From Promethearchaeota archaeon (GTDB lineage Archaea > Asgardarchaeota > Lokiarchaeia > Sigyniarchaeales > SOKP01): a DNA stretch of 64,000 nucleotides. The first letter of the stretch is position 1; every line of letters begins with the position of its first letter. Both the position numbers and the translations under genes were made by a program. Under the pieces are notes generated by a model that was given only the letters and a program-made list of their open reading frames with translations, searched no databases and was not told the origin of the DNA. Positions 39,753 through 46,712 of this stretch are shown here, piece after piece. Where the stretch lies: the NCBI GenBank assembly GCA_048937405.1, contig JBHLNF010000006.1, positions 96,001-160,000 of the forward strand, read 5' to 3'.

Positions 39753-40871
39753 ATGAGTATAAAGAGTTTTAATGATTTAATTGAAGAGGTCCATAAACCT
39801 GGGATTTGCCAAGAATGTGGAGGATGTGTTAGTTTTTGTAATGCATTAGAATATGATGTGATTGGGTTTGTTAAATCTAATTCCCCTCCAGAATATATAA
39901 ACAAGGATAAGTGCCTCGGGTGTGGAATATGTTATATTATTTGTCCACAAACTCACGTTTTAGATGACGATCTCAATAACGAATATAAATTTTCAGATTA
40001 TATTAAAATGCCATTAGGATATGTCAATTCGCTTTACTCATGCCAAGCTACAGATAGTGAATTTTTGAAACATGGAACAGATGGCGGAGTTGTAAATTCA
40101 ATTATTAATTATTTAATTGAAAAAAAAATAATTGATGGAGCAATTGTGGCAAAAACAAAATTGCCTTTCTCAAGAGAAGCTACTATAGTTGAAAATAAAG
40201 AAGAATTAATTGAGGCTTCAGGTATAAAATTAGACATATCTCCACAATTAGATAGTGTTCAGAAATTTCATACATATACAAATTCTTTACCTAAATTAAA
40301 AACTCAAAAAGTTAGGAAATTAGCATTAGTAGGGACGCCATGTCAGATTTACACTATTAGATGTATGCAAAGTTTAGGTATTATTCCCTCTGAAAATATA
40401 GAAATTTGTTTAGGATTGTTTTGCTACGAGAATTTTTTCTTTGATAAGAGAAAGGTTGAGAAATTTGAGAAAGATTTTAATATAAAATTCAAAGATATTG
40501 AAAAAATAAACATTAAAGAAGATTTAATTGTTAATTTAAAGAATAATAAAATTATTCATATACCATTTAACAAACTAAAGGATTATATGCGTAAAGCTTG
40601 CTCTGTATGTAAAGATTTCACTAATATTTATGCCGATATTTCTTTTGGAGGATTAGGATCCCCCAAGAAATTTACAACTGTAATCACTCGTACTAAAAAG
40701 GGAGAAAATATTTTTAATAAAGTTTTAAATTCAGGGATTATCAAAAGTTTAAAATTAGATATAAATTCCAAAAATGAAATAAAGGAAAAAATTACCCAAT
40801 TTTCTCTCTCAAAATTAAAACGAACAGAACAAAGTTTGAATCATAAATTATCAACGCAAGACCATAATTAA
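39753..40871 (+). CDS. FrhB-family F420-binding subunit
   Basis: CQECGGCVSFC, CLGCGICYIICP, TDGGVV, VGTPCQ, LGLFCYENF, ADISFGGLG. Confidence 0.88.
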   Translation: MSIKSFNDLIEEVHKPGICQECGGCVSFCNALEYDVIGFVKSNSPPEYINKDKCLGCGICYIICPQTHVLDDDLNNEYKFSDYIKMPLGYVNSLYSCQATDSEFLKHGTDGGVVNSIINYLIEKKIIDGAIVAKTKLPFSREATIVENKEELIEASGIKLDISPQLDSVQKFHTYTNSLPKLKTQKVRKLALVGTPCQIYTIRCMQSLGIIPSENIEICLGLFCYENFFFDKRKVEKFEKDFNIKFKDIEKINIKEDLIVNLKNNKIIHIPFNKLKDYMRKACSVCKDFTNIYADISFGGLGSPKKFTTVITRTKKGENIFNKVLNSGIIKSLKLDINSKNEIKEKITQFSLSKLKRTEQSLNHKLSTQDHN

Positions 40872-40969
40872 GGAATTCTAATAATAAAGAAGAAAAATTT
40901 TTTTATAATCTAAAAAGTAAAAATAAAAATATTTATCTTATAAAAGGAAAAAGAAGATGATTAAAAAAG

Positions 40970-45577: not shown

Positions 45578-45656
45578 GCTTATAATGTTAGAATTTAAAT
45601 AGACTCAATTTTATGAAAAAAAAAGGAAAGGAATTTATCTATCAGGTTGGAATGAC

Positions 45657-46712
45657 ATGAAGATTAAAAATTTTGCTGACAAAATAAAGATTGTCATCAT
45701 AATAGTGCTTTTAATTTTTTCATCTATACTGAATTACATATTCCAAATAGTTTTAGAAATTAACATCTTTTTTTCACATTTTTTCTATATTCCAACAATT
45801 CTAGCTTGTTTCTGGTGGAAAAGGTATGGCTTATTTATACCTATATATTTAGCAGTCTCACTAATTTTATTTCCCTTTTTTTTTGGTATAATTATTGATT
45901 ATTTACATAATTTAGAACAAATCCTTCGAGCTATAATGATTATAATTGTTGGTATTATAGTTAGTGTTCTAAGTGAACATATTTCAAAAACTAAAGAATT
46001 TACAAAAGCTTATAGTAATATTCTTTTTTATAGAGATTTAATTAGCCATGATATGAACAACATCTTTCAGAATATTTTGTCATCTACAGAACTACATTCA
46101 ATTATAAAAAAAAATAGCAATATTGTTGATGAGCAAGATGAATTAATTAAAATAATAAGAGATCAATGTTTTAGAGGAGTTAGATTAACTTTAAATGTAC
46201 AAAATCTAACAAAATTAGAAGATTCTCAATTTTATTTAAAAAAAGTAAATTTAAAAGAAATACTCAATGAATCGATTAAAAATATTAAAAATTATTACCA
46301 GGATAAAGAAATAACATTTGATATAGAGGCACCAAATAAAATACTTTGGATTAAAGCAAATGAATTATTATCTGAAATATTCATTAACTTATTTATTAAT
46401 TCTGTGAAATATAATGAAAGCCCTATCGTAGAAATCAAGATAAAGGTCTCGAATGAAAAAATTAATAGTCTAGATTATTTAAAAATTGAAGTTAAGGATA
46501 ATGGAATTGGAATTCCTGATGAACGTAAAAAAATTATATTTGAGAGAAGAAATAAGAAAAATAAGTATTCTAAAGGAATGGGAATTGGACTATCAATTGT
46601 TAAAGGAATCCTTAATAAATATAATGGAAAAATTTGGGTTGAAGATAAAGTATTTGGAGATTATTCAAAAGGGAGTAATTTCATTATATTAATTCCTCAA
46701 GCTTTTGACTAA
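45657..46712 (+). CDS. Membrane sensor histidine kinase
   Basis: N-terminal TM domain, ISHDMNN, NSVKY, DNGIGI, GMGIGL. Confidence 0.9.
   Translation: MKIKNFADKIKIVIIIVLLIFSSILNYIFQIVLEINIFFSHFFYIPTILACFWWKRYGLFIPIYLAVSLILFPFFFGIIIDYLHNLEQILRAIMIIIVGIIVSVLSEHISKTKEFTKAYSNILFYRDLISHDMNNIFQNILSSTELHSIIKKNSNIVDEQDELIKIIRDQCFRGVRLTLNVQNLTKLEDSQFYLKKVNLKEILNESIKNIKNYYQDKEITFDIEAPNKILWIKANELLSEIFINLFINSVKYNESPIVEIKIKVSNEKINSLDYLKIEVKDNGIGIPDERKKIIFERRNKKNKYSKGMGIGLSIVKGILNKYNGKIWVEDKVFGDYSKGSNFIILIPQAFD

Follow-up and report, generated by a model that had tools for sequence, protein, structure and literature searches.

An open reading frame check of the window, by which we mean the whole stretch of 64,000 nucleotides analysed here, located all five co-oriented genes that the earlier note had placed on its forward strand. 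These genes, their relevant neighbours and the predicted operators are as follows.

39753-40871, + strand: FrhB/FpoF-like flavoprotein with an N-terminal ferredoxin domain; first gene of the operon, accessory
40970-43519, + strand: fusion of a winged helix (wHTH), HdrA and MvhD, 849 aa; core gene (Pfam, PDB sequence and fold matches, AlphaFold model, conservation)
40970-41209, + strand: winged-helix DNA-binding domain of the fusion (profile matches, column conservation, pN/pS)
43509-44267, + strand: MvhG-like small subunit, 252 aa; core gene
44273-45577, + strand: MvhA-like [NiFe] large subunit, 434 aa; core gene
45657-46712, + strand: membrane histidine kinase without PAS domain; a neighbour, judged to lie outside the conserved system
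37284-39320, - strand: Sec-HdrA, divergent, 678 aa, with U17 and U201 and intact HA4 ligands
29520-30137, - strand: hyp205, uncharacterised; first gene of the predicted target operon
28766-29494, - strand: hyp242, a paralogue of hyp205 with a predicted TraB-like fold
27735-28730, - strand: MtdB-like protein of the NAD(P)-dependent methylene-H4MPT dehydrogenase family; predicted target (PF09176, synteny)
39661-39680: predicted operator in the module's own promoter, 17.4 bits
39493-39512: weaker predicted operator on the Sec-hdrA side of the divergent region, 12.0 bits
30305-30324: predicted operator upstream of hyp205, 23.4 bits, top site in the genome

The winged helix and HdrA do share one ORF, as had been proposed: Pfam assigns DUF7347/HTH_24 (residues 2-73), HdrA and FlpD/MvhD (residues 725-841) to a single frame. 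The fusion consists of an ArsR-like winged helix (residues 1-80), a linker of about 15 residues, HdrA (residues ~95-715) and MvhD (residues 722-841). The true start of mvhG is at 43509, after GAGGAG, which gives an overlap of 11 bp with the fusion gene, and mvhA follows after a gap of 5 bp. No hdrB or hdrC lies within the five-gene run. This part of the earlier claim stands, but an HdrD-like CCG gene is located 8 kb upstream (31157-32362), and many further CCG proteins are encoded across the genome. The HdrD-like gene opens an operon (hdrD, a double-flavin hdrA, mvhD and frhB; 31157-37148, +) that separates hyp205 from the module; in many relatives, hyp205 directly faces the fusion without the intervening operon. 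Immediately before hdrD, a 57-aa ORF (30952-31125, +) encodes a zinc-ribbon-like protein with two CxxC pairs. Sec-hdrA has a TGA codon in frame at each of two Cys positions, and translation with table 11 splits the gene into two ORFs; a possible SECIS element is the G+C-rich sequence of its 3' region (~37200-37240). On the other side lies a cassette of REC-Lrp, kinase, REC and Lrp genes (48154-51561); five relatives have it close to the module as well, preceded by a conserved gene of 450 aa. Just outside the window lie two tandem paralogous PCI-like and TIR-domain proteins (L124:4765-6828), possibly related to defence.

We subsequently analysed how widely this arrangement is distributed. When residues 1-200 of the fusion were used as query, about 119 of the 399 Asgard genomes, from nine families, had matches that span the winged helix and HdrA, while the same search gave no fusion in one sister family (14 genomes) and in several further families. 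With a profile search of the full library, we also recovered a fusion cluster from Bathyarchaeia, likewise followed by mvhG and mvhA. In a scan of named genomes, at least five fusions were present among the matches listed, the list being filled by ordinary HdrA. The fusion ORF of about 850 aa is free of internal stops in dozens of relatives and is therefore not an assembly artefact. The synteny survey across Asgard genomes, which the earlier note had proposed, showed that the fusion is conserved together with mvhG and mvhA. Based on 70 loci, the three genes form a stable unit, and mvhG and mvhA follow the fusion in essentially every sufficiently long locus. In 40 of these loci, the flank contained an mtdB-like or hyp gene, which either faces the fusion head-to-head or comes immediately after mvhA. 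Two atypical loci deserve mention. In L053 (genome G045), the fusion comprises only 640 aa, lacks MvhD and has its cognate large subunit far off on the chromosome; this copy is possibly decaying or mis-assembled. In the Bathyarchaeia loci L253 and L255, the module stands behind GcvH and a HydABC/NuoEFG-like NAD module, near hypA and hypF. No description of a DNA-binding HdrA was found in the freely accessible literature, and a survey of 1,152 HdrA sequences does not mention such a class. Taken together, a winged helix on HdrA, wired to its own hydrogenase, is a real, conserved and undescribed arrangement of known parts.

The two outer genes of the run do not belong to this unit. A co-oriented frhB was found upstream in 17/70 loci and is missing even in a relative of 91% identity. 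FrhB is therefore accessory, and its assumed role as a core input had to be abandoned. The histidine kinase had likewise been counted as part of the system. The kinase gene is co-oriented with mvhA at a distance of 79 bp, its product carries an intact H-box, and REC-Lrp genes are close by, all of which would suit a HoxJ-like two-component system in which the downstream kinase relays the signal of the hydrogenase to a REC-Lrp regulator. But only 3 of 57 readable loci have a kinase orthologue after mvhA, and about 20 different genes occupy that slot. The protein is anchored by transmembrane helices and 36% identical to its paralogue, the next kinase; a domain search found no PAS domain in it. 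Its gene carries no operator, and the genome gives at least 16 kinase matches. Furthermore, MvhG has no HoxB-type C-terminal tail. Given its rarity at these loci, the missing PAS domain and its many paralogues, we place the kinase outside the system. Signalling through it is largely refuted by synteny, and we regard this explanation as barely credible.

The winged helix itself is strongly constrained. Its profile matches 1y0u, an archaeal ArsR-like repressor (E 2e-6), and PagR (2zkz). The AlphaFold model has the order helix-helix-strand-helix-helix-strand-strand-helix with a pLDDT of ~72-85 over residues 11-70; folding from the single sequence gave a pLDDT of 45, and complex prediction of a homodimer reached a score of 0.34 (mark 0.42). 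The recognition helix (residues 38-48) is nearly invariant, with a column conservation of 0.90 compared to 0.53-0.77 for the other regions measured. According to a crude count in 11 relatives, the domain also has the lowest pN/pS of the protein (0.11, other parts 0.14-0.27).

We then looked for a DNA motif associated with the module. Unbiased dyad enumeration identified TGA-N12-TCA in 33 of 48 dereplicated promoters, where 6.4 were expected (z 9.7; null maximum 3.7), and footprinting refined it to the palindrome WTGAYAA-N6-TTRTCAW. The position weight matrix (PWM) was trained without the window's genome and its nearest relative. Scanning the 64-kb window with it revealed operator-type palindromes in both intergenic regions that had been named for binding assays (39321-39752 and 30138-30951), at the positions given above. 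Additional sites are located at 30412 (13.8 bits) and, within a gene, at 61859 (13.7 bits). In the 4.47 Mb genome, the sites at 30305 and 39661 rank first and fourth. The operator of the module's own promoter begins 3 bp past a TATA box (39651-39658), and within the family of this genome the site begins 2-3 bp past a conserved TATA box. A TATA-like box directly upstream of the site was present in 21/35 promoters but in only 4.5% of control windows. Judged from sequence, the operator just behind the TATA box would thus occupy the position of an archaeal repressor at the module's own promoter.

The motif accompanies the module across genomes. Promoters of hyp205 reached at least 12 bits in 47 of 50 cases, compared to 13 of 1873 background promoters. 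Among held-out hyp205 loci, 29 of 30 carry the operator, many of them on contigs other than that of the fusion, and the sole exception belongs to a genome in which the fusion was not found. Exact sites per genome amount to 1.12 with and 0.38 without the fusion, while the reversed pattern, counted as a control, gave 0.29 in either group; these genomes are kin and hence not independent. In genomes that lack the module, 29 other hdrA promoters do not have the operator, a comparison that concerns a paralogue of Sec-hdrA rather than its orthologue, and the same paralogue is also siteless in the genome studied here. Genome G259, considered as a case of an operator without the fusion, was rejected because its contig stops at frhB. 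In some lineages, the motif is weak or absent (the Sigynarchaeaceae-type loci L051-L053, also L072 and L076). The two top sites of a Bathyarchaeia locus are near-identical intergenic palindromes on both sides of the cluster, which fits an operator; they could alternatively mark the ends of an element.

These data argue that the winged helix very probably binds the predicted operator. The palindrome could be read by a factor other than the fusion, in which case the winged helix might be structural or vestigial and an unrelated regulator would bind; three further DUF7347 proteins are encoded in the genome. But no stretch that was measured is more conserved than the recognition helix, and the motif goes with the module in different classes while being absent from those other hdrA promoters. 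We therefore consider a vestigial winged helix highly improbable.

The earlier note had suggested the divergent Sec-HdrA promoter as the likely target. A site of 12 bits is indeed present there, but the sites of the hyp205-hyp242-mtdB operon and of the module's own promoter are stronger and more conserved, and these two are the strongest and best conserved predicted targets. Orthologues of hyp205 and the fusion co-occur within the family (both in 87 genomes, fusion only in 5, hyp205 only in 2, neither in 40; the genomes being kin and not independent). Thus, 87 of 89 genomes carrying hyp205 also carry the fusion, and the five genomes with the fusion only are all 58-88% complete. The paralogous proteins hyp205 and hyp242 belong to an unnamed family for which a TraB/Tiki-like fold is predicted (TM 0.51 to a TraB cluster). 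Many Asgard genomes, and likewise clusters dominated by Bathyarchaeia, have a hyp242-type domain as a fusion with an MtdB-like dehydrogenase. The gene after mvhA in Bathyarchaeia was considered as a homologue of hyp205 but rejected on comparison. There is no sign of a wider regulon: genome-wide, 23 intergenic sites of at least 12 bits were found compared to 25-35 in simulations, so that no excess exists beyond the local genes. The genome scan also gave no operator at the canonical hydrogenase operon, where control by an H2 sensor might be expected. A regulation of hdrD was rejected, as none of six hdrD promoters has the operator. The second-best site of the genome (C19:165835) lies ahead of a TIR-domain gene and may be due to chance.

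Does the fusion still have the features of a redox protein? The fold of its HdrA part matches 8rwn_A (VIA; Z 34.5, rmsd 2.6, 389 residues). It keeps the N-terminal Cys set, the FAD motif (GxGxxG at 247), the DCxxC pair and both ferredoxin domains. EFER (452-455) and Lys501 align with Sec-HdrA and 8rvu, the equivalents of Glu356 and Lys409 (E454 or E452, and K501) are conserved, and binding of FAD is predicted. The ligands of HA3, HA1/2, HA5/6 and the [2Fe-2S] cluster of MvhD are all retained. By contrast, all four Cys residues of the cluster in the thioredoxin-reductase domain, a motif that we take from established knowledge to be HA4, are gone from the HdrA of the window. HA4 is the high-potential electron route to HdrB (PMC12350162, PMC13580544). 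The full motif is missing in all 51 aligned copies from Lokiarchaeia and Freyarchaeia; it is retained in 16 of 67 copies, only in distant Asgard classes, and the Bathyarchaeia copies retain it as well. With the HA4 ligands lost, HdrA of the Lokiarchaeia module would have no exit to HdrBC. Neither this loss nor the conserved operator figures in the earlier note. A separate observation concerns a Gly at a Cys position of the C-terminal ferredoxin (C687G; 43028-43030, +), which among the aligned copies is shared only by the 91%-identical relative and was also seen in a contig from an independent sample. Given C687G, one more cluster may be decaying in the lineage of the window.

The hydrogenase subunits show a similar mixture. 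MvhG retains the Cys motifs of all three clusters, and MvhA keeps the four Ni-binding Cys, Glu12 and Arg362. In MvhA, Gln replaces the His four residues past the L1 CxxC, and the protein stops at the last His, as in HoxC of C. necator (PMC8229454); the sensor-type features that had been claimed for the large subunit are thus present. Gln at the L1 position was found in 45/59 readable copies, and the C-terminal extension is missing in 43/58. The distant Asgard and Bathyarchaeia copies keep L1 His and the C-terminal peptide together with HA4, and the sensor traits are therefore derived. From these residues, the ancestral fusion looks catalytically complete. The best PDB matches of MvhA belong to group 3. 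In a quick tree with long branches, the large subunits of the module form their own clade (SH-aLRT 91) beside canonical 3c/3d and apart from HoxC, which indicates that the resemblance to HoxC is convergent. The earlier label of group 3c is therefore tentative, and the lineage may be one of the Asgard subgroups 3e-3l (bioRxiv 2024.07.04.601786). The sole other [NiFe] large subunit of the genome is encoded in a complete mvhG-vhuA-vhuU(Sec)-hdrC-hdrB operon (L125:6629-10967; contig C26 of genome G000). Its vhuU is short and unannotated, with Sec at the Ni-ligand position. Because of this separate Vhu-HdrCB operon, metabolism does not obviously depend on the fusion module.

In two distant Asgard families (L072-L076 and L068-L071), the large subunit has no proton-transfer Glu or terminal His, which suggests that these proteins are catalytically dead or altered. 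Such copies, which may be inactive, and the position of the main hydrogenase outside the regulon would agree with a regulator that senses cofactor or maturation status (Ni, Fe-S or FAD loading, MvhGA docking) or oxidative damage instead of H2. But the Lokiarchaeia proteins keep all NiFe ligands, Glu12 and Arg362, as expected of an H2-activating site, and we consider this possibility improbable.

A more serious alternative is a trigger enzyme. Here the fusion would be one functional half of a bifurcating complex and would in addition regulate its own expression, the winged helix serving to match expression to enzyme activity or to assembly. Each HdrA arm in Mvh-Hdr acts on the FAD and HA4 of the other HdrA (PMC13580544). 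Since this arm acts in trans, the HA4-less fusion and an HA4-intact HdrA could form a working enzyme, so that the fusion would pair with Sec-HdrA or another HdrA and pass on the flux from H2. Sec-hdrA is divergent from the module in most loci of the genus and carries the operator; it is a probable target of the fusion, and Sec-HdrA a possible dimer partner. The retained cluster ligands and the HA4 of the distant copies point in the same direction, and enzyme-regulator fusions exist in archaea (RbkR, PMC5397151). However, many loci have no HdrA adjoining the module, the HoxC-like drift of the large subunit parallels the loss of HA4, hdrCB comes with a separate hydrogenase operon, and in the lineage of the window a ferredoxin Cys is replaced in addition. 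We therefore view a trigger enzyme as rather unlikely.

We favour, with some reserve, the view that the three core genes encode an autoregulatory one-component transcription factor responsive to H2 or redox state. It is likely that H2 or redox state controls operator binding via MvhGA, and reasonably likely that the Lokiarchaeia form is a dedicated sensor of low turnover. In this model, MvhGA would dock on the MvhD domain as in Mvh-Hdr. Electrons from H2 would load the clusters and the FAD of HdrA via MvhGA, and F420H2 may enter via FrhB where present. With HA4 gone, the flavin would lack an exit to HdrBC, and the complex would report the redox state instead of turning over. A redox-linked swing of the mobile arm of HdrA could move the winged helices tied to it by the linker and change how the two helices meet the palindrome. 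The fusion would thereby repress its own promoter and regulate a small local regulon, hyp205-hyp242-mtdB and Sec-hdrA. In the conversion, the fusion would have come first, followed in Lokiarchaeia by loss of HA4, replacement of L1 His by Gln and loss of the maturation peptide. We give about even chances to the full scenario, in which a bifurcating machine was turned stepwise into a kinase-free H2-sensing transcription factor whose operator binding is switched by conformational gating.

HdrA is known as an electron-transfer protein. Of the sensory [NiFe] groups in HydDB, 2b signals via a kinase and 2c, putatively, via a diguanylate cyclase, some group C [FeFe]-hydrogenases are fused to sigma-54 activators, and PutA, BirA and NadR are further examples of enzyme-regulator fusions. 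With MvhAGD-HdrABC (PDB 5ODC, 8RVU, 9SW2), the module shares the HdrA fold, MvhD, MvhG, MvhA, the FAD motif, the Glu356/Lys409 equivalents and the DCxxC pair. It differs in its N-terminal DNA-binding domain and its own predicted operator, in the absence of hdrBC from the unit, in the loss of the HA4 ligands in Lokiarchaeia and in its separate clade of large subunits. The type Ia HdrA-MvhD fusions (HdrA2; NF040770; PMC12054007) have the fused MvhD but not the winged helix. L1 Gln and the lack of a C-terminal extension are shared with the group 2b systems HoxBC-HoxJ-HoxA of C. necator and HupUV-HupT. But the hydrogenase of the module is related to group 3, and its output is a fused winged helix instead of a PAS kinase and a response regulator. 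The module probably works like a group 2b H2 sensor without being a member of that group. Degenerate catalytic features and a proposed sensory role are also found in group C [FeFe]-hydrogenases (HydS, HfsB; PMC8924675), which differ in their metal centre and are PAS-linked. RbkR likewise carries a DNA-binding domain on an enzyme and has a small autoregulated regulon, defined via footprinting (PMC5397151), but the sensing part of the module is a multi-subunit Fe-S/flavin/NiFe electron wire and not a ligand-binding enzyme.

If this reading is true, the module would be the first archaeal H2-sensing [NiFe] system and the first that does not need a kinase. The short predicted operator and the small soluble DNA-binding domain make the system simple to test, and the uncharacterised protein family beside MtdB is the indicated regulated output. 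Some of the group 3c/Hdr bifurcation that has been deduced from Lokiarchaeia genomes may then serve regulation and not metabolism. Exchange of H2 between Asgard archaea and their partners is central to models of the origin of eukaryotes, and the module would link H2 directly to gene expression in these organisms.
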